DNA from: Balneola sp. | GTDB lineage: Bacteria > Bacteroidota > Rhodothermia > Balneolales > Balneolaceae | Assembly: GCA_048058975.1 (NCBI GenBank) | Contig: JBLLNP010000010.1 | Coordinates: forward strand, 59,473 to 83,472 | DNA length: 24,000 bases | Direction of reading: 5' to 3' | Shown: positions 602 to 14,862 of the stretch, one piece after another | Position numbering within the stretch: position 1 is the first letter of the stretch | Layout: each line of letters starts with the position of its first letter | The notes under the pieces: model-generated | The model's database searches: none | What the model was told of the DNA's origin: nothing | Seen by the model: the letters and a program-made list of their open reading frames with translations, nothing else | Position numbers and translations under genes: made by a program

Positions 602-1021
602 ATGACTAGTTACGCCGAAATAATTTACCTGACAGTTGCGATGGTGGTTTTTTCGATGCTTTCTATAAATACTGCCAAGAATTTTAACACTTCCCGAAGC
701 AATATTTACAGAACTGAGCTCGAATACAGAGCCATTGCAGTAGCACAGGATGAACTGGATAAGGTTCAATGGATTTATGATGACAATGAGCTTGATCCCA
801 ACAATGCTTCGTATGTGTATGCCAATTATCCTATCACAGAAACTCATACGTATGGCTCAAGCAATGAATACAGCAGCAGCTATGTAATTGATGCCCATTC
901 TGTGCTAATTGGCGACAACGGTAGCCAAAAACGATACCAGGTTACTGTAAGTGTTTTGAATGATGAAGTAAATCCGGACGTATTTATTACCATGGACTAT
1001 GTAAAATCCTATTCATATTAA
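602..1021 (+). CDS. Small N-terminally anchored pseudopilin-like protein (minor-pilin-like); hypothetical
   Basis: 139-aa ORF preceded by AAGGTG. It has a single N-terminal hydrophobic helix (SYAEIIYLTVAMVVFSMLS) with a Glu near the N-terminus, but no canonical G/FTLIE prepilin cleavage motif. The stop lies 10 nt before the next SD-preceded ATG. Confidence 0.6.
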   Translation: MTSYAEIIYLTVAMVVFSMLSINTAKNFNTSRSNIYRTELEYRAIAVAQDELDKVQWIYDDNELDPNNASYVYANYPITETHTYGSSNEYSSSYVIDAHSVLIGDNGSQKRYQVTVSVLNDEVNPDVFITMDYVKSYSY

Positions 1022-1030
1022 GGAGTAGTT

Positions 1031-1618
1031 ATGAATGTAGGTTTAATGACGACTTTTGTAGTAGGTGGGCTTTTCATGATCTCGATGCTTGCCTTTAATC
1101 AACAGCTTATTACTGGTTCTCAGGAATTTATGTTGAGTACCATCAGCCAGGACTATCTGGATGAAGTAGTAACTGTGCTTTCTAACGATTTTAACCGGAT
1201 TGGATACAATACCGGAATAGCTGTTCCATTTACTACCCTTCAGACTAACAACATCATTTTTCAAGCTGATGCTTATGATAATGATAATTACGGTGCTACT
1301 AATATTCGCTGGTACTTTGATACAAGCGATCCTGTAACTACCACCGAAAATCCTAATGATTACTATTTGAAAAGAGAAGGGCCGATAACGGCGAATACGT
1401 ACGGTACAATTAAGTTTCCTGTTACCGTATTTAAGCTTAGTTACTATACCGCAGATGGTACTGCAACCTTTGATAAGAATTCAGTAAAGAAAATTGAAGT
1501 TCAGATTATTTCAGAATCAAGTGATGCTTATACCGTTGGTAATGGAAGTGAAGAGTTTTATCCAAAAAATGTTTGGAAACGTATTTTCGTGCCAAACAAC
1601 ATCAATTTGCCATATTAA
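1031..1618 (+). CDS. N-terminally anchored pseudopilin-like protein; hypothetical
   Basis: 195-aa ORF with an AAGGAG SD 6 nt upstream. The N-terminal helix is LMTTFVVGGLFMISMLAF and the remainder is beta-rich. It is tightly coupled to the flanking genes. Confidence 0.6.
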   Translation: MNVGLMTTFVVGGLFMISMLAFNQQLITGSQEFMLSTISQDYLDEVVTVLSNDFNRIGYNTGIAVPFTTLQTNNIIFQADAYDNDNYGATNIRWYFDTSDPVTTTENPNDYYLKREGPITANTYGTIKFPVTVFKLSYYTADGTATFDKNSVKKIEVQIISESSDAYTVGNGSEEFYPKNVWKRIFVPNNINLPY

Positions 1619-1630
1619 AGAGGAGTTATT

Positions 1631-3058
1631 ATGGGAAAGAGTCTTTTATTTTTAGTTGGAGGGTTAACCATTATAACCGGGTACATGCAGGTTCAGAATA
1701 ATCAGCGCCTGCAAACCCTTCCGGAAGTTACCGCTGCTTATTTTGAAGAGCAGCAGGCTAGAAACATTGCTAAAAGCATGATTGACAATGCCATTGAGCA
1801 CATGAAAGCCAACAATAGCTGGACAGACAGCCTTGAGATTACAGATGTAATGAATGTAGGCTCGGTACTTAACCGAGACTTACTACAAACAAAAAATATT
1901 GTAAAGTTGGTCAAAGCTGGAGGGGAACGCCCAAGCAACCAACAACAAGAAATAGAAGCAGACCAGTTACTGGCAGCAATGGATCAGGCAGGGATAAGTG
2001 GTTCCCTCAAAAGTTATACCCAAAGTTCAACCAATATACCTGTAAATAACAGCGTAGGAACCTGGGATGAATACAAAGTACTGTTGGTAAGTACCAGCAC
2101 CTATGACGGAATAGAAATCACAACCGAAGTACTTATGCAGCGGGATTCATTCTCAAAATACTCTTATATGACGGATGATGAGCTTAGTTCTGCGGGTTCT
2201 GACATTTGGTTTATGGGTTCAGATAATATTTACGGGCCAATACACACCAATGGTACTTTTAAGATGTCCGGTACCCCTTCTTTTTATGGATTGATTACGA
2301 GCCCGAATAACTGGGTAGCTCACTCCACAAACGGGGCAACCCCAAATTTCTACGGTGGGGAGAATTTCAACGCACCTACTAAAAGCTCGCCCAGCAGCTA
2401 TGAAATTTCAAAATTAACTACCGCTGCTGCTAGTGGAGGTTTAAGCTTTACTAACCAGTTAGATATTCGGTTCTATGAAAGTGGAGGTGTTGGATACGCT
2501 GACATCAATGAGTGGAACGGTACTTCATGGAGCGGTATAACTACCTATAACCTAAGTACTACTAATGGAGTGATTTCTACTACTGGTCGTGTTGATGTTG
2601 AAGGTGTTATAAAAGGGCAGATAACTCTGCATTCTGAGTCTTTGATTGAGATAGATGGTGATATCACCTATTTTACTAATCCACTTGTGGATTCCAGTTC
2701 TACTGATATGCTGGGCATAGTTAGCGAAGATAACGTACGTATTGATGAAAATGCTCATTCGGCATCGGGTTCTCTCGATTTAGATATTCACGCTTCCATT
2801 ATGGCAATGAATACCTCATTTTATGTAGAGAATTATGCTTCCTATAGCCCCAGAGGCTCCTTAAACCTACTTGGTGGCCTTATTCAAAGAAACCGGGGTC
2901 CAGTTGGCACTTTTTCCGGAACAACTATTGTATCCGGCTTTTCTAAAAACTATCAATATGATGGTCGTTTGAAAGGATCTATTCCTCCACATTTTCCAAG
3001 AGAAAGTATATTCTCTATTGTGTATTGGAAAGATGAAGTTGTAAAGGTTACAAATTAA
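1631..3058 (+). CDS. PilX-N-like anchored large fibre-associated protein (possibly PilX_N/DUF4900-type); hypothetical
   Basis: 475-aa ORF with a GAGGAG SD upstream. The N-terminal helix is SLLFLVGGLTIITGYM. The motif IYGPIHTNGTFKMSGTPSFYGLITS and the repetitive beta-rich C-terminus recall PilX-like type IV pilus accessory proteins. This assignment is from memory and is not verified. Confidence 0.55.
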   Translation: MGKSLLFLVGGLTIITGYMQVQNNQRLQTLPEVTAAYFEEQQARNIAKSMIDNAIEHMKANNSWTDSLEITDVMNVGSVLNRDLLQTKNIVKLVKAGGERPSNQQQEIEADQLLAAMDQAGISGSLKSYTQSSTNIPVNNSVGTWDEYKVLLVSTSTYDGIEITTEVLMQRDSFSKYSYMTDDELSSAGSDIWFMGSDNIYGPIHTNGTFKMSGTPSFYGLITSPNNWVAHSTNGATPNFYGGENFNAPTKSSPSSYEISKLTTAAASGGLSFTNQLDIRFYESGGVGYADINEWNGTSWSGITTYNLSTTNGVISTTGRVDVEGVIKGQITLHSESLIEIDGDITYFTNPLVDSSSTDMLGIVSEDNVRIDENAHSASGSLDLDIHASIMAMNTSFYVENYASYSPRGSLNLLGGLIQRNRGPVGTFSGTTIVSGFSKNYQYDGRLKGSIPPHFPRESIFSIVYWKDEVVKVTN

Positions 3059-3062
3059 ACTA

Positions 3063-3458
3063 ATGAGAACTATTTTCACCCTACTCCTTCTGGGGGTATT
3101 TTCTCTGTTCGGCTCTTCTACTATTGAAGCGCGGCAGCAAGTAACATTTAACGTTAATTTGAAACCTCAACTTGAGGATAGCATATTCGTTCCCGGAAGA
3201 GATCAACTACAACTTGTGGGAAATTTACAACCTATCAATACAGCTCGTCCTTATTTTTTAACAGATACGGAACCGATCGATAGCGTTTACAGTGTAACTA
3301 TTACATTCCCTGGTAGATTTCGAAATCAGACTCTTATCTACAATTTCGAGATGACTGTTAACTACATCAAACAAAAAGAAAGCCTGGAACGCAGGCTGCT
3401 TCTGCGTACGGGTGAAGTGGAATTGGACGCACTATATTTCAATGCTTTTGCCTGGTAG
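3063..3458 (+). CDS. Small secreted beta-sandwich-like protein (CBM20-like pattern, weak); hypothetical
   Basis: 131-aa ORF starting 4 nt after the previous stop. The signal peptide is MRTIFTLLLLGVFSLFGSSTIEA. The strand pattern is VTFNVNL...LQLVGNL...YSVTITFP...IYNFEM. Confidence 0.55.
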   Translation: MRTIFTLLLLGVFSLFGSSTIEARQQVTFNVNLKPQLEDSIFVPGRDQLQLVGNLQPINTARPYFLTDTEPIDSVYSVTITFPGRFRNQTLIYNFEMTVNYIKQKESLERRLLLRTGEVELDALYFNAFAW

Positions 3459-3556: not shown

Positions 3557-4072
3557 ATGAGGCAGTTAGCATTTCTGGTTACCATTTTTACTTTTTTGTC
3601 CTTCACCTCCTCTGTATCAGCTCAGGACAATGACCCAAGGCCCAGCGTTACTGCCTTAGTAAATATTTCTGCCCAGGTAGTACAATCCATTCAGCTCATA
3701 ACAGTTAATTCCATGACCTTTGGAAATGTGCAACCGGGACAGCTTGAGATATACGTTAACCCCATCAACGATGTAAATGCCGGTTATATGATTGCCGTTG
3801 GAACACCTGGTGCAGAATTCCGGCTCGATTTTCAGCAAGTACGAAACCTTACCAATGTGGAAGACGAAGGTTTTCTCACTTTCCAATACGAACTTTCCGG
3901 TAACGATACAGAAGACCAGTCCAGTTCTGAATTAATAGAAAATGAAAACCGTAGCATCGTTTTTAATGCGGATGGAGAATATCACATCTGGGTTGGTGGA
4001 CGAGTTAACATTGAGAATGCAACCCCTGGTAGTTACGAAGGCGATTTTACTATCGAAATAGATTATATCTGA
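3557..4072 (+). CDS. Secreted fimbrial subunit, SCPU/DUF4402-type (Csu-like archaic chaperone-usher family), paralogue 1
   Basis: The signal peptide ends SVSAQ|D. It has an N-proximal FG motif (MTFGNVQPGQ) and a C-terminal signature shared by all four paralogues (IWVGGRVNIENATPGSYEGDFTIEIDYI-COOH). Confidence 0.65.
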   Translation: MRQLAFLVTIFTFLSFTSSVSAQDNDPRPSVTALVNISAQVVQSIQLITVNSMTFGNVQPGQLEIYVNPINDVNAGYMIAVGTPGAEFRLDFQQVRNLTNVEDEGFLTFQYELSGNDTEDQSSSELIENENRSIVFNADGEYHIWVGGRVNIENATPGSYEGDFTIEIDYI

Positions 4073-4076
4073 GCTA

Positions 4077-4679
4077 ATGTGCAAACTGCATCAAATAGCA
4101 CTAACTGCATTAATTCTCTTAATCAGTTTTACGTCTAATGCTCAGGAGATCAATTTTGGAACTTTCAGTAGTTCATATTCTATGACGGTTACCCCAACAA
4201 ATGGGACAACACTTAATTTCGGGCAATTAATCTCAGGCGATGTAGATCCCGTAACAATAGCTCTGGACGATTTCGAAACGATTATTATTAGCGTTACAGG
4301 AGTAAAGTATCTGGATGTATTTGTACAAATCACTGCTCCTGATTACATAATCAAAGACGATCAACCCGGATGCGTAACCGATAATTGCAGAGTACCCTTT
4401 ACCCTTTCCGCGGCTTATGCGAACAAAGGAATGGAAAACAGCAACCAGGCAGTCATTATGAATGTACTCTCTAATTCTGCCAGTGCCCTCTTCCCGATAA
4501 GATCGAGAGGAAACGCGCCTCCCGGCCCTCCCCCAACTCCTGTGTACGAAGGATATAATCCAGCCTTGTATGAAGATACAGCCTATATCTATGTGTATGG
4601 AAGTCTTGCTGCAGGCACTTACGATGCCGGAACCTACACTTCTTTAACTGATATTTCAGTGATGGTTTCCTATGATTAA
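4077..4679 (+). CDS. Secreted fimbrial subunit, SCPU/DUF4402-type, paralogue 2 (larger, with a PPGPPPTP insert; candidate minor or tip subunit)
   Basis: The signal peptide ends SNAQ|E. It has the LNFGQLISGD motif and the C-terminal signature YVYGSLAAGTYDAGTYTSLTDISVMVSYD-COOH. The start lies 4 nt after the previous stop. Confidence 0.65.
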   Translation: MCKLHQIALTALILLISFTSNAQEINFGTFSSSYSMTVTPTNGTTLNFGQLISGDVDPVTIALDDFETIIISVTGVKYLDVFVQITAPDYIIKDDQPGCVTDNCRVPFTLSAAYANKGMENSNQAVIMNVLSNSASALFPIRSRGNAPPGPPPTPVYEGYNPALYEDTAYIYVYGSLAAGTYDAGTYTSLTDISVMVSYD

Positions 4680-5202
4680 GACTGGTAAATACATATCAGC
4701 TTTTCTTTTTTTAATTGCTCTTGGATACCAAAATTTGAATGCCCAGTTCATAAACCTGCAAATACGAATTGAACCTGAAATAACAGCCAAGGTTGAGCAA
4801 AATCTCGATTTCGGAGAATTAGTTATTGGTTCAGGAGAAAAGTATATAGGCCTTGGCGATTTGAATATGGGCGTGTTCAGTATTCGTGCGCTCTACACCC
4901 AAAGCATCTATTTATCTATGAATGCTACCGATGCCCTGGTTCACACCAATCCTTTTATAGGAGATCGGATCCCAATCGATTTGAATATTGCTTACAACAA
5001 CACGGGAAATAACAATGCAAACCGGTCTATTGAATTATCTGAAAACCTGGTTTATTTACCTGTGTATGACAATCCCGGCAACCCAAGGCCAAACCCGATC
5101 TGGCAGGAACTCTATGTGTATGTGTTCGGCACCATAGAGGTTGGAGAAGTTGCTACCGGAGAATATTTTTCTGAACTCACCTTGGTTGTACAGTATGATT
5201 AA
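4672..5202 (+). CDS. Secreted fimbrial subunit, SCPU/DUF4402-type, paralogue 3
   Basis: The ATG overlaps the previous gene by 8 nt (ATGATTAA). The signal peptide ends LNAQ|F. It has the LDFGELVIGSG motif and the C-terminal signature YVFGTIEVGEVATGEYFSELTLVVQYD-COOH. Confidence 0.65.
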   Translation: MIKTGKYISAFLFLIALGYQNLNAQFINLQIRIEPEITAKVEQNLDFGELVIGSGEKYIGLGDLNMGVFSIRALYTQSIYLSMNATDALVHTNPFIGDRIPIDLNIAYNNTGNNNANRSIELSENLVYLPVYDNPGNPRPNPIWQELYVYVFGTIEVGEVATGEYFSELTLVVQYD

Positions 5203-5205
5203 GGG

Positions 5206-5238
5206 TTTCTTAATAAAACAGGGTATTTCATTAAGAAA
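5206..5238. promoter_or_regulatory. Perfect 9-bp inverted repeat TTTCTTAAT-N15-ATTAAGAAA immediately after the stop of paralogue 3, inside the 181-nt gap before the major-subunit gene
   Basis: I read the arms directly at 5206-5214 and 5230-5238. The element is AT-rich and has no following T-tract, so it is more likely a protein-binding site or weak attenuator than a strong terminator. Confidence 0.25.
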
Positions 5239-5383
5239 TAAAAACCTTCTTAAAACACCCAAAAACGCCATTTTTATCCTTTTCTTAGACGTTTTTAATT
5301 AAGACACTCTAACTTGTACCCCTCCAAACTAATGGATAAGTTTGTATCAGAAATTAACAAACCAACACTCTCAACTTATTACT

Positions 5384-5890
5384 ATGAAAACTTTAAAAAC
5401 TCTTTCGATCTTTGTTGTTGCTGCTTTTTTAAGCAATGGTGCTTTCGCACAGGAAACTGCTGATGTAGCTGTTTCTGCTACTGTTGAAGCTGCTTTAGTT
5501 CTTACTCCAACAGCGGTTGCTCTTGGAACTATTCAAACTGGTGCTGCTTCTATCATTGACGCTAACGCAAATGATGATGCTACTGAAGCTAACTTAGGTA
5601 CTGGTGCTTCTGCTGGTTCTTTGCAAATTACTGGAACTTCTGGTGCAAGCGTTGATGTATCATGGGGAAATGCCACTCTTGATAATGGTTCTAACCCTAT
5701 CACTTTTACTCCATCTGTATGGTTAGGTGCTTCTGAGCTTACTACTCCTGCTGGTACTTCAGTAACTTTGACTGGCGGTGATATCACTATCGATGTTGGA
5801 GGCGCATTAGCTGCTCCAGGAGGAACTGGTACCTACAACACTTCTACTGGTTCTGGATCACCAATTACTTTCACAGTTTCTTATAACTAA
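5384..5890 (+). CDS. Candidate major fimbrial subunit, SCPU/DUF4402-type, paralogue 4
   Basis: I prefer the ATG at 5384 (MKTLKTLSIFVVAAFLSNGAFAQ|E) over the TTG at 5342 in the ORF track. The mature protein is Ala/Thr/Gly/Ser-rich, with C-terminal signature ITIDVGGALAAPGGTGTYNTSTGSGSPITFTVSYN-COOH. It shows strong NNT codon preference (GCT/ACT/GGT/TCT), has its own upstream gap, and is followed by a strong terminator. Confidence 0.7.
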   Translation: MKTLKTLSIFVVAAFLSNGAFAQETADVAVSATVEAALVLTPTAVALGTIQTGAASIIDANANDDATEANLGTGASAGSLQITGTSGASVDVSWGNATLDNGSNPITFTPSVWLGASELTTPAGTSVTLTGGDITIDVGGALAAPGGTGTYNTSTGSGSPITFTVSYN

Positions 5891-5905
5891 GAAGGTTAAG
5901 AATTT

Positions 5906-5944
5906 AAAAAAGTCTCATTACTTCGGTGATGAGACTTTTTTTTT
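5906..5944 (+). terminator. Rho-independent terminator or attenuator with a cUUCGg tetraloop after the major-subunit gene
   Basis: AAAAAGTCTCAT-TA-C(TTCG)G-TG-ATGAGACTTTTTTTTT. The core stems are 5911-5918 and 5929-5936, the loop is C-UUCG-G (5921-5926), and a 9-T run follows (5936-5944). Confidence 0.8.
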
Positions 5945-6039
5945 ATCAGAAAAGACGGAGATTTTCTTCAAATTTAATCTTATATAAAACTTTAGCACTT
6001 TTTAGCTATTTTATTACGGGTTCAAATAAAATTGGAAAA

Positions 6040-6882
6040 ATGAAAAATATCATCTCGTCTATTACTTTCTTCGCATTGCTCCTTTTGCTTTTTCAAGGAG
6101 TACTTATTGCTCAGGTAACTATTTCACCTACCAACTTGTTTATTGACGACAATGCTCAATTTGGTTCTTATATGGTGATTAATGGTTCCAATGAAGCACA
6201 GGAAATAAGCATCGATTTCTTCTTCGCCTATTCCCACTCTGATGAAAACGGAACCAGAGGAATTGTCCAGGATGACTCAGTGAGTGAAAGCCTGTATTCT
6301 ATCGCCGATAATGTTCGTGCTTTCCCCAGGAACTTTACCCTTGCCCCGGGCCAACGACAAACGGTTCGCTTAAGAGTTTCAGGCACAAATGAATTACAGG
6401 ATGGAACCTATTGGTCTCGTATTAAAACCACTTCCACCCCGGAAACTCCCCCATTGGAAATTCAGAACAATGACGCAGTTACCGCAAGAGTAGGAATAAA
6501 AGTGGAGCAGGTAACCGGACTATTTTTCAAAAAAGGGAGCGTAACTACCGGAATTGAAATTAATGGGATAGAAACCAGTACCGAAAATGATGGGAATACG
6601 CTTAATGTACTTGTTGATTTACTAAGAACAGGTAACTCTCCTTTCCTTGGAACTATTACCACAGAAGTTTTAAATGCGCAGGGTTCCAGCGTACTAAGCG
6701 ACTTCGTTTCAACATCTATCTATTTTGACGGCAAGTTCAAACAACAACTTAATATCCAGGATTTACAACCCGGTAGTTACCAGATTAAAGTAACGTTTGA
6801 AAGCAGTAGGACTGATATTGATCAAAGCAGGCTGGTTCAAATGCCTGTTTCAACCCAAACCGTACCATTCTCTATCAGGTGA
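6040..6882 (+). CDS. Periplasmic fimbrial chaperone-like protein (PapD-like, two Ig-like domains)
   Basis: I prefer the ATG at 6040 (MKNIISSITFFALLLLLFQGVLIAQ|V). The GTG at 5926 in the ORF track lies inside the terminator hairpin. The N-domain pattern VTISPTNLFIDDNAQFGSYMVINGSNEAQEISI...FPRNFTLAPGQRQTVRLRV...DGTYWSRIK matches the PapD_N layout. The gene sits between the subunit genes and the usher-like gene. Confidence 0.6.
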   Translation: MKNIISSITFFALLLLLFQGVLIAQVTISPTNLFIDDNAQFGSYMVINGSNEAQEISIDFFFAYSHSDENGTRGIVQDDSVSESLYSIADNVRAFPRNFTLAPGQRQTVRLRVSGTNELQDGTYWSRIKTTSTPETPPLEIQNNDAVTARVGIKVEQVTGLFFKKGSVTTGIEINGIETSTENDGNTLNVLVDLLRTGNSPFLGTITTEVLNAQGSSVLSDFVSTSIYFDGKFKQQLNIQDLQPGSYQIKVTFESSRTDIDQSRLVQMPVSTQTVPFSIR

Positions 6883-6905
6883 CACATTGGTATTCATCAT
6901 AATTA

Positions 6906-9893
6906 ATTCATTCACTGGTCATTATTTTATGTTGTTTATTTAGTTCTACCATTGTAAACGGCCAAAATAGTGATGATGAAGATTTTGAAGTATACCTGTC
7001 TTTTCGACACCGCGGAATAATTAACACGGTTATCATTTCTTATTATAAGAATGATGAATTCTATCTTCCTGTAAACGATATTTTCTCTAAGTTTCAGATT
7101 GAAACTGAAATTTCAGGTATTAAAACCTCCGGGCGCTTTGGCGTAGAACAAACTCCCTATTCTATTGATTTCACAGAACAGGTTATCCGTTTTGGGGATG
7201 AAAGTTACACCCTCACCAAAGAAGAGTTTCTGATTAAAGATCTGGACAATTATATGCCCGCAAGAATATTTAATGAAGTATTCGGGCTTAATTTCGAAGT
7301 AGATTTTAATAACCTCGCTCTTTCTCTCGATACAGAAAAAGAACTACCTATCGTTGAACGTGCAATCAGAAATCAGAGAAGAAATTTAGCCAATCAAAAC
7401 AGAACGGGGATCTCCTATTTCCCGCTAGAAAAAAAACGATCCTTCAGTTTGCTGGATGGTGGCTTTGCTGATTATAGTTTCTCATCGGCCACTAACCGTG
7501 AACGAACTAATTTTAGTGCAAGTACAGCTTTAGGGCTTCAACTGGCAGGTGGGGACCTTGAAGGCACTATTTTTGGAAACTACAACAAAGATGATTCCTT
7601 TATTGAAACTAATTCACTTCGCTGGAGGTACGTCATCAGAAACAATCCGGCAATATCAACCATTACAGCTGGACAAACTAACCTTGATGGCGTTGTAAAT
7701 GCGCCATACACTGGTATTAGACTTACTAATCAACCTAATGAACCCAGAAGATTCTTTGATGAGTTTGCAATCGATGGAAATACTTTCCCGCTTTCTGAAG
7801 TTGAACTCTACCTGAATAATTCACTTGTTGACTTCCAGACTGCTGATGACGCCGGGAATTACCGATTCCTCACTCCTTTATATTATGGCTCTTCCCAGCT
7901 GGATATCCGAATTTTTGGCCCGACAGGTCAAACAGTGGAACAATCTTCCAGAATTCAGGTCCCTTTCACTTTTTTACCCAAAGGAGTGCTAAACTATAAT
8001 CTAAATGCCGGTATTCTGGATAATCCCCTTTTCGGAACTACAGAACGAACCAATGTTTTTACTGCAAACTCTGCGTTTGGAGTAACAAAATGGATGACTG
8101 CAAAAGTAGGGTATGAGTTTTATGAAGGCTCAGGAATTGTGGAAGATAATTCCGCTTTAACAGGAACTATCTCTTCTCGGCTGCTTTCGAATTATATACT
8201 CACCCTCGAAGGTGTTTCAGGTGGGTATTACCGCTCTGCTCTTAATGCCGTTTATGCCAGTTCCGCAAGTATTAATGTTGATTATATCAACTTTATTGAC
8301 AATGCGACAATCTATAACAGTTCGAGTAATGATCAACAAATCCTGGCAAATGTCTTCTTCCCCATTTCTCTTGGGAACTTCCCTTTAAGTGTCCGTACCT
8401 CCATTTTCTCCCGGTTTAGAGATGACATCAGTTTTTCTACGTTTCGTATGGATCTTAATGCTCGTTTGAGGAAGTTGAATTTAAGACTAGGTTATACCGA
8501 GCGATTAAACAACTCATTCCAGGTCTTTAACTTTGAGAATAATTCTACCCTTGAAGCTGCATTAACCTACAACGTACCAAGGACAAGAGACATACCAGGC
8601 TTCATTCGCGGCACTTTATTCAGAGGTCAATTCCGGTACGATCCAAAGGAAAAAAAACCGGAAATATTTGAATTACTGTATTCAAGAAGTGTAACAACCA
8701 ATGGGAGGTTGCAGCTTACCTTGGGCAGAAACTTCCAATCAGAATTTAACTCCATTCGCTTCAATTTTGTGATAGATTTTGGGAAAGTAAGGTCTAATTC
8801 TACATTTACAATGCTGGGAGATAATTATAATGTCACTCAAAACTTCAGGGGATCAGTTGGGTACGACTCTAATTACAAGAACTTTTTATTCACAAGCAGA
8901 GACCAGGTAGGAAGATCGGGGGCCGCTGTTAAGCTATTTGTTGACAACAACAATAATAACACCTTTGACGAAGGAGATGAGCCTATTAACGAAGGCACCA
9001 TTCGGGTTGGGCGAAGCGGTACATCTTCTACTCAAAAAGACGGGATTTTTTACTATACACAGATGTTGCCCTATTTCCAGTACAATCTGGAAATGAATAA
9101 AGGCTCTATCAGAAACCCTATGCTTGTTCCCGAACTGGAGAAATTCTCGATTATTACCGATCCCAACTCTTTCAAAAAAATTGAAATTCCGTTTTACATG
9201 TCTGGTATTATTGAAGGAGAAGTAATCAGACAATATCTAAACGGAGGTGAAAAAGGTATTGGTGGTCTTAAACTGGTATTAAGCTCTTTAGAAAAGGATT
9301 TTGTTAAAGAAATCAGAACGTATTCTGATGGAAGTTTTTATGAATATGAATTGCCTCCGGGTAAATATGAAATTGTTGTAGATCAGGGACAGCTGGACAT
9401 CCTGAACTCGAAATCTCTCCCTGAAAAAATTGAGCTCGAAATCGAAGCTATACCCGAAGGAGACTTCCTTGAGGGAATAAACTTTACCCTTGTCCCTGTT
9501 GATTTCGAAGAACAACCTGAGGAAGTAGAAACCGTAACAGAAGCTCCGGTTACCTTAGCGGATGTCCCCATCGAAATAATTAATTCCCCTGAAGTTATCC
9601 TTTATGAACAACAGCTACTTACTAATGTTGAAAAAGCTTTACGTTTGATTATTCTAACGCAAAATGCCTTCTTCGAAAAAGACTTTGAAACCGCATTTGG
9701 CTATATTAATGAGTCACTTAACAACTTCGAGACGGCACAAGGATACGCTTTAAAAGGCAGTATACAGTATTTTCAGGGAGACCGAACCGGTGCAGTAACC
9801 AGCTGGAGAATGGCTTTGCGGTTCGATCCTGATATTTACATCCCTACTCTCGAAGAGTTAGATCAAAAAGTAACGGTTAGTTCTTCTGAATAA
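6906..9893 (+). CDS. Usher-like outer-membrane fimbrial assembly protein with a C-terminal acidic linker and TPR-like extension; the 5' end is uncertain (no canonical start before ATG 7254)
   Basis: The frame is open from 6903. Codons 6906-7253 encode a signal-peptide-like segment (IHSLVIILCCLFSSTIVNGQ) and an usher-N-domain-like segment (EVYLSFRHRGIINTVIISYYKNDEFYLPVNDIFSKFQIE). The body has an amphipathic beta-strand pattern rich in aromatic-terminated strands (TAKVGYEFY, LRLGYTERL, LEAALTYNV, IRFNFVIDFG). Two beta-sandwich-like modules follow, including GIIEGEVIR...GGLKLVL...TYSDGSFYEYELPPGKYEIVV. The first ATG/GTG/TTG in frame is at 7254. Confidence 0.6.
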   Translation: MHSLVIILCCLFSSTIVNGQNSDDEDFEVYLSFRHRGIINTVIISYYKNDEFYLPVNDIFSKFQIETEISGIKTSGRFGVEQTPYSIDFTEQVIRFGDESYTLTKEEFLIKDLDNYMPARIFNEVFGLNFEVDFNNLALSLDTEKELPIVERAIRNQRRNLANQNRTGISYFPLEKKRSFSLLDGGFADYSFSSATNRERTNFSASTALGLQLAGGDLEGTIFGNYNKDDSFIETNSLRWRYVIRNNPAISTITAGQTNLDGVVNAPYTGIRLTNQPNEPRRFFDEFAIDGNTFPLSEVELYLNNSLVDFQTADDAGNYRFLTPLYYGSSQLDIRIFGPTGQTVEQSSRIQVPFTFLPKGVLNYNLNAGILDNPLFGTTERTNVFTANSAFGVTKWMTAKVGYEFYEGSGIVEDNSALTGTISSRLLSNYILTLEGVSGGYYRSALNAVYASSASINVDYINFIDNATIYNSSSNDQQILANVFFPISLGNFPLSVRTSIFSRFRDDISFSTFRMDLNARLRKLNLRLGYTERLNNSFQVFNFENNSTLEAALTYNVPRTRDIPGFIRGTLFRGQFRYDPKEKKPEIFELLYSRSVTTNGRLQLTLGRNFQSEFNSIRFNFVIDFGKVRSNSTFTMLGDNYNVTQNFRGSVGYDSNYKNFLFTSRDQVGRSGAAVKLFVDNNNNNTFDEGDEPINEGTIRVGRSGTSSTQKDGIFYYTQMLPYFQYNLEMNKGSIRNPMLVPELEKFSIITDPNSFKKIEIPFYMSGIIEGEVIRQYLNGGEKGIGGLKLVLSSLEKDFVKEIRTYSDGSFYEYELPPGKYEIVVDQGQLDILNSKSLPEKIELEIEAIPEGDFLEGINFTLVPVDFEEQPEEVETVTEAPVTLADVPIEIINSPEVILYEQQLLTNVEKALRLIILTQNAFFEKDFETAFGYINESLNNFETAQGYALKGSIQYFQGDRTGAVTSWRMALRFDPDIYIPTLEELDQKVTVSSSE

Positions 9894-9895
9894 CA

Positions 9896-11755
9896 ATGCA
9901 TTCGATTAACAACTTACATATCGGATCAGGTTTTTTACCATGGAAGAAGTACACCCTGAATTGGATGAAAACTCTGTTTTCCTCTATTCTGTTTATTGTT
10001 ATTGCTGTTTTAACATTTTCGGCTTCAGTTCTTGCACAAAACGCTGTTGATCCAGCAAATTCTCAGTCTCTCGATCTTAAAGTCTCCTCGTTGGAGCAAA
10101 GCTATGATGCCCAGGTTTACTTACTGCTCTCTAATTACTTCGACCGTAAAAAATTCTTCGTAAATACAGGAATAAACGCAGAATTTGTTGATGAAACTAT
10201 TGAAACTACTTCGAATGCGATCGTCAGGAATCAACCGGATCCGATAATTATGCCTGGTCTTCCCTTCCTTCCTCAGGAGAATCTAAGACAACCGAGCGGT
10301 ATCGGCGAGTCGCCTGAAACAGTCGTAAATCAAAATACGGTTCGCACTCTACGGTTAATTGATGTGAATATCAGTATCTATGCTGATACCTCCTTTAATG
10401 CTGAGGAAATCCAGTTTATGCGATTACTAACGGGAATTTCTGCGAAAATTAATGAATCCCGTGGCGATGTAATCACCATTGCTCAGATCCCTATTCCAAA
10501 ATTCGGAGATGATGACCCTGTTCGTATTGTTCAGACAGAACCGGAAGATTTTAACCTTGTTGCATCATTCAGGCAGTACATTCCAGGCTTTGTACTTTTA
10601 TTTTTGTTTGGCATGATTATGTTTGTAAGTCACTACTTCAACAACAAATCGAACAATAATCGCGTCTCTCCTCTCCAGCAAAGAGAGAGTATTAAACACG
10701 ATATTAGCATTAGTGACTACAATCCCCGCACAGTAGAACAAGTAATGGTAAATGGGAGTACTCAACGGGATCCTTCCATTGAAGTAGATGAATTGATTGA
10801 AAGCTTCTTTACCAAATCACAGGAAATTTCCCTCTTATTTGAATTCTGGATGTCCGATTCTCCTGAAGAAGGAATTACTAAAGCAGCTGAAGTAGTGGCT
10901 AGTGTTGACCAAAGCCTGCTTAGGGCCATCAAAAATGATATGCAAAGCGAAAACTATGAAGCTATTGTTACTGCTTTGGAAGAGTTACAACCGATGACCT
11001 CTGAGTATAAAAACTCGGTAATCAGAAATTTCAATTCCGTTCTTCGATCAGGAAACAAAAACTCACTCAGTTCAAAAAAGAACGGTCACATTACACTTTT
11101 CAAGTTTTTAGATCATATCAACGAGCGCCAAATGGTGAACCTGTTAGAAGACGAAGGCTACCAAACCGGAGCTTTGATTTTAGATTATCTGCCAGATGAT
11201 AAAGCTGCACGTATACTCGATCGTCTTGATAAAACGAAGAGTACAAACATCATGCTTAAAATGACCACTATAAATACCATCCCCTACAAACTTCAGAGTG
11301 AGATTTCTGCCCGGTTGTTTGAAAAGGCAATGGATTTAATTGATGAAGAGCGCGAACAGCGTCTTGGAGCGGAAAACATACTGCCAGTACTTGATAAACT
11401 TCCCCTTAGCGAGCAACAAAATTATATCGACCAACTAAAGGCAACAAATTCTATAGTAGGCGAAATTGTAGAACGACAGTTTATCACGGTTGATCAGGTA
11501 ATTAGCCTGACAGACGATATCATAAAAGATGCACTCAAAGATATAAACACCTCCACCCTGTTGGATGCCATCATCGGGCTGGATCAAAAACTGATCGATA
11601 AAATCTTATCCGTAAGGCCAAGAAGAGAGCAACGACTAATTCGCCTTGAATTAAGTGAAATGGGAGGTAATACTTCGAAAGATACTACCTACGCGAAAGC
11701 TAAAATGATGGAATCTATTCGAAATACTGTGAAAGAATCCAAAAAAGATCAGTAA
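9896..11755 (+). CDS. Membrane protein combining a FliF/SctJ-like periplasmic segment, a TM helix and a complete FliG-like (N, M, C) cytoplasmic region
   Basis: The ATG lies 2 nt after the usher stop, and an alternative ATG at 9965 gives MKTLFSSILFIVIAVLTFSASVLAQ|N. The periplasmic part ends ...TLRLIDVNISIYADTSFNAEEIQFMRLLTGISAKINESRGDVITIAQIPIP, followed by the TM helix YIPGFVLLFLFGMIMFVSHYF. The cytoplasmic part contains LLEDEGYQTGALILDYLPDDKAARILDRL (FliG-M, EHPQ-motif region) and LLDAIIGLDQKLIDKILSVRPRREQRLIRLELSEMG (FliG-C-like). Confidence 0.7.
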   Translation: MHSINNLHIGSGFLPWKKYTLNWMKTLFSSILFIVIAVLTFSASVLAQNAVDPANSQSLDLKVSSLEQSYDAQVYLLLSNYFDRKKFFVNTGINAEFVDETIETTSNAIVRNQPDPIIMPGLPFLPQENLRQPSGIGESPETVVNQNTVRTLRLIDVNISIYADTSFNAEEIQFMRLLTGISAKINESRGDVITIAQIPIPKFGDDDPVRIVQTEPEDFNLVASFRQYIPGFVLLFLFGMIMFVSHYFNNKSNNNRVSPLQQRESIKHDISISDYNPRTVEQVMVNGSTQRDPSIEVDELIESFFTKSQEISLLFEFWMSDSPEEGITKAAEVVASVDQSLLRAIKNDMQSENYEAIVTALEELQPMTSEYKNSVIRNFNSVLRSGNKNSLSSKKNGHITLFKFLDHINERQMVNLLEDEGYQTGALILDYLPDDKAARILDRLDKTKSTNIMLKMTTINTIPYKLQSEISARLFEKAMDLIDEEREQRLGAENILPVLDKLPLSEQQNYIDQLKATNSIVGEIVERQFITVDQVISLTDDIIKDALKDINTSTLLDAIIGLDQKLIDKILSVRPRREQRLIRLELSEMGGNTSKDTTYAKAKMMESIRNTVKESKKDQ

Positions 11756-11760
11756 CTCCT

Positions 11761-12303
11761 ATCAGGAAGAAAAGAAACATATCACTGGTAACCTTTAGCT
11801 TTCTGGGTATTTTTTTACTCTCTTTAGCTTGTGGATCATCAAGAGAAACCTCATCTCCTGCGGAAACTCCGACTGTGCAGGATAATAGTGTGAATATTGT
11901 CGATACTCCCGTTCAAGCAGCTCTTGAGGACACTGTAAGTCCTGAACAGAAACGCAGAGAACAACTCACTGAGCTTTATAAAGAAGAATTAAGCGATCAA
12001 TATCAGGCAGATGCTAACGGATTGATTAACTTCTACATTCTGGCACAGCAACGTTTTTTTACTGGCGATTACCAAAACGCGCTTATTCTTATTAATCGTG
12101 CGGCTTCAATAAAAGAAAATGCAGATGTACTGGCTTTGAAAGGCAGCATTTACCTTGGTCTTGGGCAAACTGAGAATTTTGTGGCTAATTGGAGACAGGC
12201 ACTGGAATTGGATGCAGATGTTCCAATCCCCCCTCTCCCTTATATAGTACAGCAGCTACAACTAAATGGGTTGTTAGACGAAAATCTTCAAAAGGCTTTT
12301 TAA
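11761..12303 (+). CDS. TPR-like lipoprotein; the 5' end is inferred at a non-canonical ATC (first canonical start is GTG 11875)
   Basis: The frame is open from 11704. Codons 11761-11832 read (I/M)RKKRNISLVTFSFLGIFLLSLAC|GSS, a textbook lipoprotein signal with lipobox Cys. The C-terminal half (FFTGDYQNALILINRAASIKENADVLALKGSIYLGLGQTENFVANWRQALELDADVPIP) is TPR-like and paralogous to the usher C-terminus. Confidence 0.6.
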   Translation: MRKKRNISLVTFSFLGIFLLSLACGSSRETSSPAETPTVQDNSVNIVDTPVQAALEDTVSPEQKRREQLTELYKEELSDQYQADANGLINFYILAQQRFFTGDYQNALILINRAASIKENADVLALKGSIYLGLGQTENFVANWRQALELDADVPIPPLPYIVQQLQLNGLLDENLQKAF

Positions 12304-12304
12304 A

Positions 12305-13102
12305 GTGAGAACTTCTGTATTAAACATTTTAAGCTTTCTGGTTTCCGTAGTATTTCTTGGATGGGGAGCACTCCTCGTAATGGGATTTACCCAATATGAT
12401 TTAATCCCATCTGAATATAGCTTTCTTAACCTGCCTAGTTTGGCCATCGTTTTTGGCGGAATTTCTGCCAGTGTTTTTATCAGTTATCCGTTTCGTAAAG
12501 TAGTACAGGCCTTAAGAGACAGTACCAAGTTGTTTTCGCAGAGTACCATTACCGACGAGATGCTTGAACGGGATATAGATGATATCCTGGAATGGCAAAA
12601 AATGATAAATGCCGATAAAATTCAGGCTGTTTCCGAGCTTAGCAAAACCTACAACGATCGTTTTGAAGGATATCTTTTTTCCGTGCTGGATACCAATTAC
12701 TCAACCGAGGAATTGAGAGAGCTAGGTGAAATAAACATCACAGAAAACTACACAAGGCAGCAGCAAATAAACCAGATCATAGCCAGTATGGGACGAACCT
12801 CACCCGTTTTTGGTATGCTTGGAACCCTTTTTGGACTTGTAGTAATTCTTTCGGGATTTAGTGAAGTTGAATCTTTGCTAACCGGTCTTGGAGCAGCCTT
12901 AATGACTACTCTTTACGGAATCATAATTGGGAACTTTGTTTTTACCCCAATGGCAAAAAAGATGAATAATATTGCTTCTTTGCAATATTTCCGCGAAAAA
13001 CTAATCCTGGAGGGGATTATTCTTATCGAAGAACGAAAAACATCCCTACAGATCTACGACCGCTTGCAAGCACATATGCGTCGGGGAAGTTATAAACTCT
13101 AA
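12305..13102 (+). CDS. motA: MotA/PomA-type proton-channel stator subunit (MotA_ExbB family, 4 TM)
   Basis: The GTG start lies 1 nt after the previous stop. There are two N-terminal TM helices, a cytoplasmic loop of about 100 aa, then SPVFGMLGTLFGLVVILSGF and LGAALMTTLYGIIIGNFVFTPMAKKM. These are the conserved TM3/TM4 with the Pro residues typical of MotA. The topology is 4-TM MotA-like rather than 3-TM ExbB/TolQ-like. Confidence 0.8.
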   Translation: MRTSVLNILSFLVSVVFLGWGALLVMGFTQYDLIPSEYSFLNLPSLAIVFGGISASVFISYPFRKVVQALRDSTKLFSQSTITDEMLERDIDDILEWQKMINADKIQAVSELSKTYNDRFEGYLFSVLDTNYSTEELRELGEINITENYTRQQQINQIIASMGRTSPVFGMLGTLFGLVVILSGFSEVESLLTGLGAALMTTLYGIIIGNFVFTPMAKKMNNIASLQYFREKLILEGIILIEERKTSLQIYDRLQAHMRRGSYKL

Positions 13103-13113
13103 GAGCTTTATTT

Positions 13114-14862
13114 GTGGAACCTAAGCCACTAAATAGTAATCGTAATTCTTTATTTCCGGGTGAACCATTCGAACCGGAAGATGACGAAAGCTGGCAGGTT
13201 AGCTATCTGGATATCATCACAATTATTTTAGGTTTCTTAATCATACTTCTGTCTGCTTCCCAACTAGCTAAAACTGATTTTACTTCACTATCTACGTTAT
13301 TTGGCAATAACTCAGACCGAACCGAATTCATCACTACCCCGGTTGAGGAAATACAGGAAGAACTGGAAACTCTTCTCCAAACCCAAATAGAACAAGAACG
13401 TTTAGAAGTTATCCGTGACTTAAATGATATCAGAATCCGATTCAGAAGTGACGATTTCTACCCTTCAGGAAGTGCAAATATACAAGGATCCGGACTGGAT
13501 TTACTGAACCATGTTCTGCGTGCTTTCCAGCAAACTACCTACAACGATTTTAGCATCGATGTTGAGGGACATACCGACAACGTCCCTATCTCATCTGATC
13601 AATACCCTTCGAACTGGGAGCTTTCAACGGCTCGTGCTTCCAACGTAGTGAAGTATTTCAATCAAATGGGTATTGAGCAAGATCGCCTTAAAGCATCAGG
13701 TTTTGCTGATTCCCGGCCATTAATTCAGTTTGATTCATTTGGTAATCCATTTGCTGCAAGCAAAGAAAAGAACCGAAGAGTTGTACTCCGCTTATATTAT
13801 ACCACAGAAGGACTACAGCGGCAGGCTACTCAGGATGCACTCGCCATACGTGATAACCCGCCTGTGAACGCTGAGGAGGAGGTCTCTCAGCCTGCTGCAT
13901 CAACCGCCGAACAACTTGCTCAGGAAATTGCCCAGATCAGCACATCAAACCAACAGGAACTCATTCCTGAACCTGAGACCCCTCCCGCCCCGGCTCAGAC
14001 CCAGACACCTGTACCTGATCCGACCCCAAACGAAGAAATTTCTCAACGAATCCCTCCTTCTGTCGAACCGGAATCAGATGATACATTACCATTTATTCCT
14101 TCTGTGTTTGATCAGGCTGCATCATGCGATTTTGTGGTTCAAACAGGAAGTTATCAATCACTTTCAAGTGGCTTCCAGGTAGCTAAGAATTCTGAGAATA
14201 AAAGTGGATATGAATTTGAAGTCTCATACAACAATTCGTTGTATTCTGTCCGCTCAAATAAACTTGGATCGCTTTCTAATGCACTATTTGTTCAGAATAT
14301 TGTTTCTAAAGCTTTGAATGAATCCACTATAGGAATTGTGCATCAATGTTATCAATCGAGGCAGCTCGCACCTGAGACACTAACCTATCAGATTCAGTTT
14401 GGAGCATTCAGAAACCAGGAAAACGCACTTAATTATACTATGAATGTGCTGGATCAATACGGAATTCAAACCTATATGAACCGAAGAGGCTCTACGTATC
14501 TTGTAGTTGCAGGGCCTTATACAGGCAGAGAAACTGTGACCGAACAATTACAGGCATTCAAAGAGAAAGGAGTTACTGAAAAAATATATATCCGCCATAC
14601 TGATGAATCTGTAAAGGAATATAATTTTATCTATCAAGTTCAATTGGCTTCATTTTCTAGTCAAAGCGAAGCAAGAACGGCCTTACAGCAAATCCAAACA
14701 AATCTTCAGATTCCGGTAAGCGTTAAACAGCTGAATGATGGAAATTACTATGTGGTCTCAGAAAGGATTACAGACTGGGATGAAACCACTCAGCTCTTCA
14801 GTCGGGCACAAAACAGCAGCTTGAGCTTGAAGCCTGTGATATACTATCTGGAATATCTGTAA
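13114..14862 (+). CDS. motB: MotB-type stator subunit with an OmpA-like peptidoglycan-binding domain, a Pro-rich linker and three C-terminal SPOR-like domains
   Basis: GTG start. The MotB N-terminus WQVSYLDIITIILGFLIILLSAS carries the invariant TM Asp (D33, nt 13210-13212). The OmpA-like core is IDVEGHTDNVPISSDQYPSNWELSTARASNVVKYF...GFADSRPL...NRRVVLRL (nt about 13420-13800). The linker is PEPETPPAPAQTQTPVPDPTP. SPOR-like units lie at about 14125-14313, 14380-14583 and 14626-14838. Confidence 0.8.
   Translation: MEPKPLNSNRNSLFPGEPFEPEDDESWQVSYLDIITIILGFLIILLSASQLAKTDFTSLSTLFGNNSDRTEFITTPVEEIQEELETLLQTQIEQERLEVIRDLNDIRIRFRSDDFYPSGSANIQGSGLDLLNHVLRAFQQTTYNDFSIDVEGHTDNVPISSDQYPSNWELSTARASNVVKYFNQMGIEQDRLKASGFADSRPLIQFDSFGNPFAASKEKNRRVVLRLYYTTEGLQRQATQDALAIRDNPPVNAEEEVSQPAASTAEQLAQEIAQISTSNQQELIPEPETPPAPAQTQTPVPDPTPNEEISQRIPPSVEPESDDTLPFIPSVFDQAASCDFVVQTGSYQSLSSGFQVAKNSENKSGYEFEVSYNNSLYSVRSNKLGSLSNALFVQNIVSKALNESTIGIVHQCYQSRQLAPETLTYQIQFGAFRNQENALNYTMNVLDQYGIQTYMNRRGSTYLVVAGPYTGRETVTEQLQAFKEKGVTEKIYIRHTDESVKEYNFIYQVQLASFSSQSEARTALQQIQTNLQIPVSVKQLNDGNYYVVSERITDWDETTQLFSRAQNSSLSLKPVIYYLEYL

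Follow-up and report, generated by a model that had tools for sequence, protein, structure and literature searches.

Introduction

FliG and flagellar-type MotAB proteins are usually taken as hallmarks of the flagellum. The assembly of chaperone-usher fibres needs no inner-membrane energy source, and classical pilus operons have an attenuator after the major subunit gene. Here we describe a locus that holds genes of both kinds in one row. In a 24-kb stretch of a metagenome-assembled genome (MAG) of Balneola sp. (contig JBLLNP010000010.1; the whole stretch is hereafter called the window), ten co-oriented genes on the + strand (positions 3557–14862) encode four DUF4402 subunits, a chaperone candidate, an usher, a FliF/FliG fusion protein, a tetratricopeptide repeat (TPR) lipoprotein, and MotA- and MotB-type stator proteins. 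The closest kin of the fibre genes is presumably the archaic (sigma) chaperone-usher class, e.g., Acinetobacter Csu and Myxococcus Mcu/spore-coat-U. We consider it slightly better than an even chance (probability roughly 0.55) that the products of this locus form one composite envelope machine, in which the rotor and stator are functionally coupled through TPR modules to the usher.

ExbBD-TonB, TolQRA-Pal, and GldLM are inner-membrane 5:2 motors that energise outer-membrane processes (PMC9127263). A survey of stators described the flagellar-type features as specialisations for flagellar rotation (PMC12505986), and the question has been raised whether rotor proteins without a filament have another function (bioRxiv 10.1101/2024.12.05.626484). 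An earlier reading of the present DNA (the preliminary description), made from its sequence, had named no described system with this gene combination. In the literature that we searched, mostly outside subscription journals, we likewise found no description of FliG/MotAB beside an usher or beside DUF4402, or of the five-gene cassette reported below; both the composite locus and the stand-alone cassette appear to be undescribed within that literature.

Results

Predicted FliF/FliG fusion protein encoded directly downstream of the usher gene

The usher gene and the four genes behind it are as follows (aa, amino acids; TM, transmembrane; Ig, immunoglobulin; RBM, ring-building motif).

6879 to 9893 (from 6903 after an internal TAA), + strand: outer-membrane usher with an N-terminal domain, a barrel and plug, Ig-like C-terminal domains, and a C-terminal TPR domain (ca. 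residues 890–990)
9896 to 11755, + strand: FliF/FliG fusion protein of 619 aa, with a signal peptide/TM1, a periplasmic FliF-RBM3/β-collar-like domain, a TM helix, and cytoplasmic FliG N, M, and C domains
ca. 11761 to 12303, + strand: TPR lipoprotein, in a frame open from 11743, with the lipobox LSLAC/GSS; homologous to the TPR proteins of the stand-alone cassette
12305 to 13102, + strand: MotA-type stator A subunit of 265 aa, with four TM helices, a long cytoplasmic loop, and both conserved prolines (TM3 and TM4)
13114 to 14862, + strand: MotB-type stator B subunit, with TM Asp33, a plug, an OmpA-like domain, a Pro/Glu/Gln-rich linker, and a triple SPOR tail

The fusion gene begins 2 nucleotides (nt) past the stop codon of the usher gene. 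Its product matched the Pfam families FliG_M (7e-12), FliG_C (1.2e-10), and FliG_N (4e-8), and, among solved structures, it aligned with the middle and C-terminal domains of Thermotoga maritima FliG (E 4e-14). In the predicted structure (predicted local distance difference test [pLDDT], 71), the N-terminal hydrophobic helix ends in ...AQ, a motif that it shares with the signal peptides of the secreted proteins encoded nearby. Next come a periplasmic α-β-β-α-β unit with two strands of 23–25 residues, a TM helix (residues 229–249), and an all-helical cytoplasmic part (residues 293–618). A Foldseek search with this model returned two separate sets of matches, one to full-length FliG (8wiw; E 8e-9 over 313 columns) and the other to the RBM3/S-ring of the FliF MS-ring (many entries; E 3e-5 to 3e-4, probability 1.0, ca. 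165–185 columns); SpoIIIAG and a Salmonella needle-complex (injectisome basal-body) model were matched more weakly. Because the FliG and FliF RBM3/S-ring matches form separate sets, the rotor protein is, as judged from its model, a natural, reduced FliF-FliG fusion. FliF has RBM1, RBM2, and RBM3, and the model shows only one RBM3/S-ring-like unit, fused to FliG.

Among 37 members of the fusion family, the most conserved stretch was the helix aligned with the FliG torque helix, in which R574, R577 (equivalent to E. coli R281), E578, Q579, L581, and E585 (equivalent to D289) were invariant. All three FliG domains (N, M, and C) are present in this protein, together with a charged torque helix. 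A PGLP motif (consensus MPGLPFLP) was also invariant, in the loop joining the two long periplasmic strands.

Stator proteins, TPR lipoprotein, and usher

The A subunit matched MotA_ExbB in Pfam (1.5e-16), and its best NCBIfam models were those of MotP, MotA, and PomA (E 1e-29 to 1e-24; MotP, 1.7e-29). MotA of Clostridium sporogenes (7e-20) and PomA were its best solved relatives, and the four TM helices, the long cytoplasmic loop, and the TM3 and TM4 prolines of a MotA protein were all found. The B subunit matched MotB_plug (26.7 bits against a cutoff of 24) and OmpA (E 3.5e-13) and aligned with MotB of C. sporogenes. It has the channel Asp, plug, and OmpA-like peptidoglycan-binding domain of a MotB protein, and Asp33 lies in the TM helix within a block of invariant columns. 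The channel Asp, plug, both MotA prolines, and FliG torque helix were invariant or nearly so across 37–46 sequences.

In the window, the TPR lipoprotein has its signal peptide and lipobox (RKKRNISLVTFSFLGIFLLSLAC/GSS) in frame, and its homologues have lipoprotein signal peptides. The frame open from 11743 contains no ATG, GTG, or TTG before 11875, and the start would have to be ATC at 11761, ATA at 11779, or CTG at 11785.

The window usher had no match in Pfam or NCBIfam, and only 2 of its 38 homologues matched the Pfam family Usher; a search of the usher profile against PDB sequences also gave no match. Its AlphaFold model (pLDDT 82) matched FimD/PapC in Foldseek with E 1e-29 to 1e-22 and probability 1.0 over 740–950 columns. 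This fold match covers the N-terminal domain, the 24-strand barrel with its plug, and the C-terminal Ig-like domains expected of an usher, so that the protein is predicted to be one. The model has an additional helical TPR domain at its C-terminal end (ca. residues 890–990), which shares 35–41% identity with the TPR lipoprotein and 34% with the TPR protein of the stand-alone cassette. By these identities, the C-terminal TPR domain of the usher is paralogous to the TPR lipoprotein of the motor.

The preliminary description had proposed a usher-like barrel of roughly 1000 aa, a membrane protein with all three FliG domains 2 nt behind it, a TPR lipoprotein, a 4-TM MotA-type channel, and a MotB-type protein with the TM Asp and an OmpA-like domain. 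These assignments were supported by the fold match despite the lack of a Pfam match, by FliG_N/M/C, by the in-frame lipobox and the signal peptides of the homologues (with no ATG, GTG, or TTG ahead of the lipobox in the window), by MotA_ExbB with MotP, PomA, and MotA as nearest relatives, and by Asp33, plug, and OmpA, respectively.

Conserved linkage of the fibre and motor genes in Balneolaceae

One genome per species (GTDB) was scanned with the fusion-protein alignment, and the gene order around the matches was mapped by tblastn. We obtained 45 species-level loci, all from Balneolaceae, including the cultured strains Gracilimonas tropica DSM 19535 (L045) and Balneola sp. EhC07. Complete chromosomes with the locus are OZ244932.1, CP051242.1, and G. 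tropica AQXG01. In every one of these loci with enough flank, the genes for subunits, chaperone, usher, fusion protein, TPR protein, MotA, and MotB-SPOR stood in one and the same order. Further metagenome contigs kept this order, and the fusion proteins were 38–94% identical across loci. The median gaps were −4 nt between the chaperone and usher genes and 2 nt (range, −14 to 75) between the usher and fusion genes, followed by 23, 8, and 12 nt at the next junctions. The block occurred in at least two chromosomal surroundings, with either pyruvate dehydrogenase (PDH) and alanyl-tRNA synthetase (AlaRS) genes or sigma-54 downstream, and with an upstream pilin-like block present or absent. The claim that the motor quartet is syntenic with the fimbrial genes, and not adjacent by chance in one genome, was thus sustained.

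At one locus (L008), the motor genes were 80–92% identical to those of the window and the subunit, chaperone, and usher genes only 31–58%. For L006, L007, and L009, which are closely related to it, the identity was 72–95% in both halves. Since the halves differ in identity in L008 and not in these relatives, this suggests that the fibre half of L008 was replaced by recombination beside a conserved motor half.

Loci without motor genes and the location of the SPOR tail

A second form of usher (1160–1550 aa) carries SPOR repeats at its end in place of the TPR domain. Four loci with this form were examined (two of Gracilimonas, one of Fodinibius, and one of a Balneolaceae MAG), all of which had the subunit and chaperone genes and none of the four motor genes. 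These motor-less loci occupy the same chromosomal positions as the motor-bearing loci, and their ushers lack the TPR end. Residues 913–1160 of a Gracilimonas usher (P0176) were colinear with residues 338–580 of the window MotB (14125–14856) over ca. 250 residues (E 1e-13). The shared tail consists of three SPOR-like repeats with conserved Cys residues (C...QCY). In 4/4 loci without the motor it belonged to the usher, and in all loci with the motor it belonged to MotB.

The usher bodies of the window and of the motor-less Gracilimonas locus are 53% identical up to residue ca. 895. Because the SPOR tails are colinear and the usher bodies align up to this point, a single in-frame deletion between the C-terminal linker of the usher and the linker of MotB, or the reverse event, would interconvert the two forms. 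Both usher forms occurred with both kinds of flank, and the SPOR-type ushers of Gracilimonas were as near to the window usher (52–55%) as the TPR-type ushers were; therefore, repeated loss of the motor seems more likely than repeated gain. The peptidoglycan-binding tail is always kept, on the stator if one is present and otherwise on the usher. These motor-less orthologous loci are compatible with energy-independent assembly of the fibre.

SPOR domains target septal or polar peptidoglycan. Their relocation fits a design in which the usher is left unfixed to the wall when the motor is present, and a positioning role is also possible. It is rather unlikely that the ring and stator are coupled to the usher without being a power source, serving as a peptidoglycan-anchored scaffold, a positioning device, a mechanosensor, or a gate of the usher. 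Such a role would suit the prominence of the SPOR and OmpA anchoring domains, the SPOR tether of the motor-less usher itself, from which the conserved need would seem to be anchoring or positioning, the independence of chaperone-usher assembly from inner-membrane energy, and the non-motility of G. tropica (PMC4642740). Set against it is the near-invariance of the channel Asp, plug, MotA prolines, and torque helix, which is a pattern to be expected of an active ion-driven motor and less so of a passive scaffold.

Stand-alone five-gene cassette in other lineages

When 1.84 billion cluster representatives were searched exhaustively with HMMER, 144 proteins were matched at E <= 1e-30. Of these, ca. 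15 were of the Balneolaceae type (>550 bits), and ca. 100 further clusters (50% identity) contained proteins of 580–750 aa that matched the fusion profile from end to end, including the periplasmic domain; two of the latter were annotated as Elusimicrobiota. A profile word-index search for distant fusion proteins gave only 6 matches. Gene contexts were obtained for five loci by look-up (L056–L060) and for 19 loci by a metagenome scan with a narrow alignment, 17 of which reached past the fusion gene. In 22 loci, as far as the contigs reach, the order was fusion gene, a gene for a secreted protein of ca. 360 aa, and genes for a TPR protein, MotA, and MotB (plug and OmpA). The TPR protein is a lipoprotein at least in L056. 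The hosts were Elusimicrobiota and unassigned marine and other metagenome contigs, and all five gene-annotated loci had housekeeping neighbours. No match to a DUF4402 subunit, chaperone, or usher was found within 10 kb at any of the 24 stand-alone loci.

The ca. 360-aa protein has a conserved N-terminal domain and a β-rich C-terminal half, and one member matched FlgO weakly (E 0.002). Homology of this protein with the usher was rejected (BLASTP E 0.5; hhalign probability 5%), and the usher is therefore a replacement and not a descendant of it. The gene is missing in Balneolaceae exactly where the usher gene precedes the rotor gene. The window MotA was 40% identical to the MotA of L056 (197 bits), compared with 75 bits for the best solved flagellar MotA, and the cassette TPR protein was 37% identical to the window TPR protein. 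The cassette and the window locus thus share the fusion architecture, the PGLP and RGD motifs, and homologous TPR proteins; the cassette differs in having its own ca. 360-aa secreted protein, a MotB without the SPOR tail, and no usher, chaperone, or subunit genes within 10 kb. From these comparisons, the Balneolaceae quartet is the cassette minus the ca. 360-aa gene, placed directly behind an usher that gained a copy of the cassette TPR. The quartet did not originate in this locus: it is a reduced copy of a cassette that stands alone elsewhere, including in Elusimicrobiota. In one stand-alone cassette, a CheR methyltransferase gene lies directly 3′ of the MotB gene (L056, 6180–7001), and the MotB of one Elusimicrobiota cassette (L059, 14758–15783) ends in a TPR segment of the cassette-TPR type.

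The presence of each module on its own raises a minor though real possibility that the two are neighbours and not partners, i.e., that an independent rotor-stator cassette landed behind a fimbrial operon in a Balneolaceae ancestor and was kept there by vertical inheritance and shared transcription. The cassette is alone in 24 loci of other lineages, the fimbrial operon is alone in four Balneolaceae loci, and the linked loci all come from one family, as would be expected in that case. However, this possibility leaves unexplained that the usher has the cassette-specific TPR as a fused domain only in loci with the cassette, that the ca. 360-aa protein was lost only beside the usher, and that the SPOR tail stays with the usher once the four motor genes are gone. 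The linked genes also form one block in different chromosomal surroundings.

Comparison with flagella and other MotAB-family systems

The window shares with the flagellar motor core the FliG N, M, and C domains, with R577 and E585 as equivalents of R281 and D289, and the RBM3/β-collar-like periplasmic domain. With the flagellar MotA5B2/PomAB stator it shares the long loop and both prolines of MotA and the channel Asp, plug, and OmpA-like domain of MotB. Unlike in the flagellum, the FliF-like and FliG parts form one polypeptide with a single RBM (RBM1/2 and a separate FliF are lacking), the EHPQR motif of FliG is degenerate, MotA does not keep the R90/E98 pair, MotB carries three SPOR repeats at its end, and the partner at the outer membrane is the usher (in the stand-alone cassette, the ca. 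360-aa secreted protein) together with the TPR lipoprotein. No genes for FliM/FliN were found in the window or in the flanks of ca. 50 loci, and none for the type III export gate, rod, hook, or filament in the window and flanks. The absence of other flagellar or che genes from the 24 kb, as had been reported, was confirmed; a stand-alone receiver domain is encoded at 23570–23944.

At the level of whole genomes, the evidence comes from published work. G. tropica DSM 19535 has 17 COG-N genes (PMC4642740). Aliifodinibius species, which belong to this family too, have kept an incomplete flagellar gene set, and their flagellar-assembly genes were reported to be lacking in G. tropica and Balneola (PMC9909488). 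Since G. tropica carries the locus, these data run counter to the possibility, named in the preliminary description as a refutation, that the locus is the sole supply of fliF, fliG, and motAB functions to an otherwise complete flagellar regulon. Balneola vulgaris has been described as motile and flagellated (PMC5167729), and a KEGG comparison reported no flagellar-assembly genes of the Aliifodinibius type in B. vulgaris DSM 17893 (PMC9909488). This species was not among the 45 hits of the species-level scan, and no dedicated look at its genome was taken; the filaments or 'flagella' reported for it might be the machine described here. A simple correlation between motility and the locus fails, as G. 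tropica has the locus yet is described as non-motile (PMC4642740).

It is highly improbable that the motor genes are a decaying flagellar remnant or supply fliF, fliG, and motAB functions to a flagellum encoded elsewhere. The nearest families are flagellar, and both the incomplete set of Aliifodinibius (PMC9909488) and the description of B. vulgaris as flagellated (PMC5167729) would suit such an origin. However, the RBM3-only fusion, with no RBM1/2 or separate FliF, is conserved in well over 100 clusters of several lineages, always within this five-gene cassette, the genes are strongly conserved and show no decay, no FliM/N, export-gate, rod, or hook genes lie nearby, and G. tropica has 17 COG-N genes (PMC4642740) and, like Balneola, is reported to have none of the Aliifodinibius flagellar-assembly genes (PMC9909488). 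The fusion architecture, the conservation, and the absence of these genes nearby bring the idea of a flagellar regulon remnant close to refutation, and it was rejected.

The proposed logic of the composite machine, in which an ion-driven inner-membrane complex of the MotAB family acts on an outer-membrane machine across the periplasm, is that of ExbBD-TonB, TolQRA-Pal, and GldLM. In contrast to these systems, the stator of the window is of the flagellar type and would face a cytoplasmic FliG ring, with no drive via the periplasmic arm of its B subunit. A Tol or Ton identity was rejected, as tolQ and exbB were matched with E 0.014 and 0.05–0.1, respectively, against 1.7e-29 for MotP. Zorya (ZorAB) also has a MotAB-family complex, and the window MotB matched ZorB models at 55 bits, which reflects general MotB similarity (flagellar MotD, 135 bits). 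Zorya was rejected, since there was no ZorA match, no long ZorA tail, and no genes of the ZorC/D/E type.

Fibre subunits, terminator, and chaperone candidate

The fibre genes ahead of the usher gene are listed below.

3557 to 4072, + strand: subunit 1, a secreted DUF4402 fimbrial-type protein (Pfam DUF4402, 25.3 bits), with a signal peptide ending in ...SAQ and the C-terminal motif G...G-x-Y...Y-x-COOH
4077 to 4679, + strand: subunit 2, a secreted paralogue with the same C-terminal motif; its orthologues match DUF4402
4672 to 5202, + strand: subunit 3, a secreted paralogue overlapping subunit 2 by 8 nt
5384 to 5890, + strand: subunit 4, rich in Ala, Thr, Gly, and Ser, and flanked by gaps of 181 and 149 nt
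5906 to 5945, + strand: intrinsic-terminator-like hairpin and U-run directly 3′ of subunit 4 (ΔG −20.5 kcal/mol; z −4.9)
6040 to 6882, + strand: secreted periplasmic protein of 280 aa with two Ig domains, the chaperone candidate, lying between the subunits and the usher and overlapping the usher start by 4 nt

The gaps between the ten genes are, from 5′ to 3′, 4, −8, 181, 149, −4, and 2 nt, a short gap that depends on the start of the TPR gene, 1 nt, and 11 nt. The preliminary description had counted eleven + strand open reading frames (ORFs); its coordinates, strand, and gaps of −8 to 181 nt stand, and the number of genes is ten.

In an alignment of all four subunit paralogues (88 sequences), G148, G158, Y160, and the penultimate Y170 were conserved at 90% or more, and 41 of the 88 homologues matched Pfam DUF4402 (best E 1.2e-12). 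As judged from this alignment, the subunits have the C-terminal Gly and penultimate Tyr of the chaperone-binding strand, and the four paralogous subunits with a C-terminal Gly...Tyr signature that had been predicted are therefore real members of one family. Subunit 1 is probably a minor or tip subunit, and subunit 4 is the probable major fibre subunit, with three minor subunits ahead of it. Across loci, the median gap was 110 nt before the subunit 4 gene and 134 nt after it. A hairpin with a T-run was present 3′ of the subunit 4 orthologue in 32/32 distinct loci, and the stem sequences differed among them. This hairpin had been missed by a generic terminator scan; it was spotted by eye and confirmed by folding. 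It is probably an attenuator that sets the ratio of the major subunit to the assembly and motor proteins.

PapD_N was matched weakly by 7 of 29 homologues of the chaperone candidate (best E 0.003), and other Ig-type families were matched equally well or better. Pfam and NCBIfam gave nothing for the window protein, and the profile had no match among PDB sequences. Because the PapD_N matches are weak and PDB sequences were unmatched, the assignment rests mainly on position. Of the PapD-like chaperone proposed earlier, the position and the Ig-type matches stand, and a specific PapD relationship is at best weakly indicated.

Taken together, the fibre half resembles chaperone-usher pili in its small secreted subunits with a Gly...penultimate-Tyr end, followed by one periplasmic Ig-type protein and one usher, in the usher model matching FimD/PapC over the N-terminal domain, barrel, plug, and C-terminal domains, and in the terminator after the major subunit gene. 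It differs from them in that its subunits match DUF4402 and not Fimbrial or SCPU in Pfam, its chaperone is barely recognisable, its usher has an additional TPR domain or SPOR tail, and its operon runs on into rotor and stator genes.

Surroundings of the locus

The G+C content of the window is ca. 0.40, with a range of 0.385–0.441 across 3–15 kb and no compositional break, and a recent horizontal island was rejected on this ground. Upstream (602–3458), four small proteins have N-terminal hydrophobic helices; this pilin-like block consists of proteins of 139, 195, and 475 aa, the last with DUF4900, and a secreted protein of 131 aa. Such a block lies ahead of the fimbrial genes in many loci but not all (e.g., L001, L004, L005, L051, and L055), and in relatives it is preceded by a giant protein of 1700–2700 aa with DUF2341, Invasin_D3, and a type IX secretion system (T9SS) C-terminal sorting domain. 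Positions 1–393 hold the C-terminal end of an ORF that leaves the window and that may, by position and sequence, be of the DUF4900 type. The downstream flank is housekeeping (PDH, AlaRS, and DUF502; annotated by synteny with L001). Ca. 9 kb 3′ of the locus, a gene on the − strand (23570–23944) encodes a stand-alone response-regulator receiver domain of 124 aa (Response_reg, E 4e-22), and it adjoins a gene for a 228-aa protein without a family match (22814–23500). Promoter motif scans were uninformative, with 34 sigma-70 motifs against 38 expected and 1 Bacteroidetes-type motif against 0.9 expected.

Discussion

The links that favour one apparatus are the usher TPR, which occurs only with the motor, the swap of the SPOR tail between usher and MotB, and the 2-nt median gap between the usher and rotor genes. 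We infer ring formation, physical contacts, and the use of energy as follows. MotA/MotB units would conduct ions via the Asp33 channel, with the OmpA-like and triple-SPOR domains fixing them to peptidoglycan, and would engage the FliG C-domain at its conserved charged helix (R577 and E585). The fusion protein would form a ring in the inner membrane, the periplasmic part of which, predicted to be FliF RBM3/β-collar-like, would hold the invariant PGLP at its distal tip. This tip may couple to the outer-membrane usher through two paralogous TPR modules, i.e., the lipoprotein and the C-terminal domain of the usher. Ion-motive force would thereby reach the usher or fibre, and may cause turning, extrusion, retraction, or gating. 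That the two modules form one apparatus had been proposed in the preliminary description. Its family assignments, except for the chaperone, and the conserved linkage support the proposal in part; it is modified by the motor being an accessory and by the quartet being a reduced copy of a cassette found elsewhere.

Several observations weigh against the composite machine. In the rotor, the position of FliG D288 is Leu throughout the fusion family, so that the canonical charge is not kept, and the FliM-binding EHPQR motif is degenerate and reads EGYQT. In the stator, the canonical R90/E98 pair of MotA is not kept: the R..GLL.LE motif aligns to INADKIQAVSE, and E111 is not conserved. In this loop, D90, W97, and Q98 are instead invariant, and K99 and E121 are conserved at 90% or more. 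The fibre genes are intact without a motor in Gracilimonas, Fodinibius, and other Balneolaceae, and the motor is therefore an accessory that is not needed for assembly as such. Conversely, the cassette occurs without any usher in 24 other loci, and each module is thus self-sufficient somewhere. All linked loci belong to one family; therefore, vertical inheritance could preserve the adjacency. The terminator lies between subunit 4 and the chaperone-to-MotB genes, and subunit and motor genes therefore need not be co-expressed. G. tropica, a carrier of the locus, is described as non-motile (PMC4642740). The weak assignment of the 6040–6882 protein as a chaperone candidate is a further caveat.

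The usher gene of the window itself is also a point against this reading. Its frame, which starts from GTG at 6879 and overlaps the chaperone stop, meets an in-frame TAA at codon 8 (6900–6902). Usher homologues that are 83–97% identical have AAA (Lys) at codon 8 and start with MTHWYTSK... (MTHWYTSKLIHS...). The TAA is either a true nonsense mutation in this MAG or an assembly error, and the usher of this particular MAG may be inactive. The NCBI annotation gives an usher of only 879 aa from ATG at 7254, which is 100% identical to ACMZ7B_08340 [Balneola sp.].

That the fibre is truly driven by the FliF/FliG-MotAB rotor-stator, by turning or cyclic movement, is a stronger claim, which we regard as distinctly doubtful. 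If it were true, the locus would encode a second, independently assembled ion-powered surface appendage, with a flagellar-type motor but without type III secretion, rod, or hook. In that case, the stand-alone cassette would be a flagellar-type motor of general use in work at the outer membrane, either related to the ancestor of the flagellar motor or derived from it as a fragment that was put to use repeatedly.

The locus is a concrete and conserved case of a minimal rotor, predicted to be FliF-RBM3 fused to FliG, and a stator outside any flagellum, and the wider cassette bears on the origin or re-use of the flagellar motor. The locus is directly testable in two cultured carriers, G. tropica DSM 19535 and Balneola sp. 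EhC07. If the coupling is true, it would offer a simple system in which to study a rotor and stator without the ca. 40 other flagellar proteins. In one bacterial family, Balneolaceae, this minimal rotor-stator is joined to a chaperone-usher fibre, the product of a pathway thought to be free of inner-membrane energy, and, if coupled to it, would represent a new means by which a surface fibre is powered or controlled.

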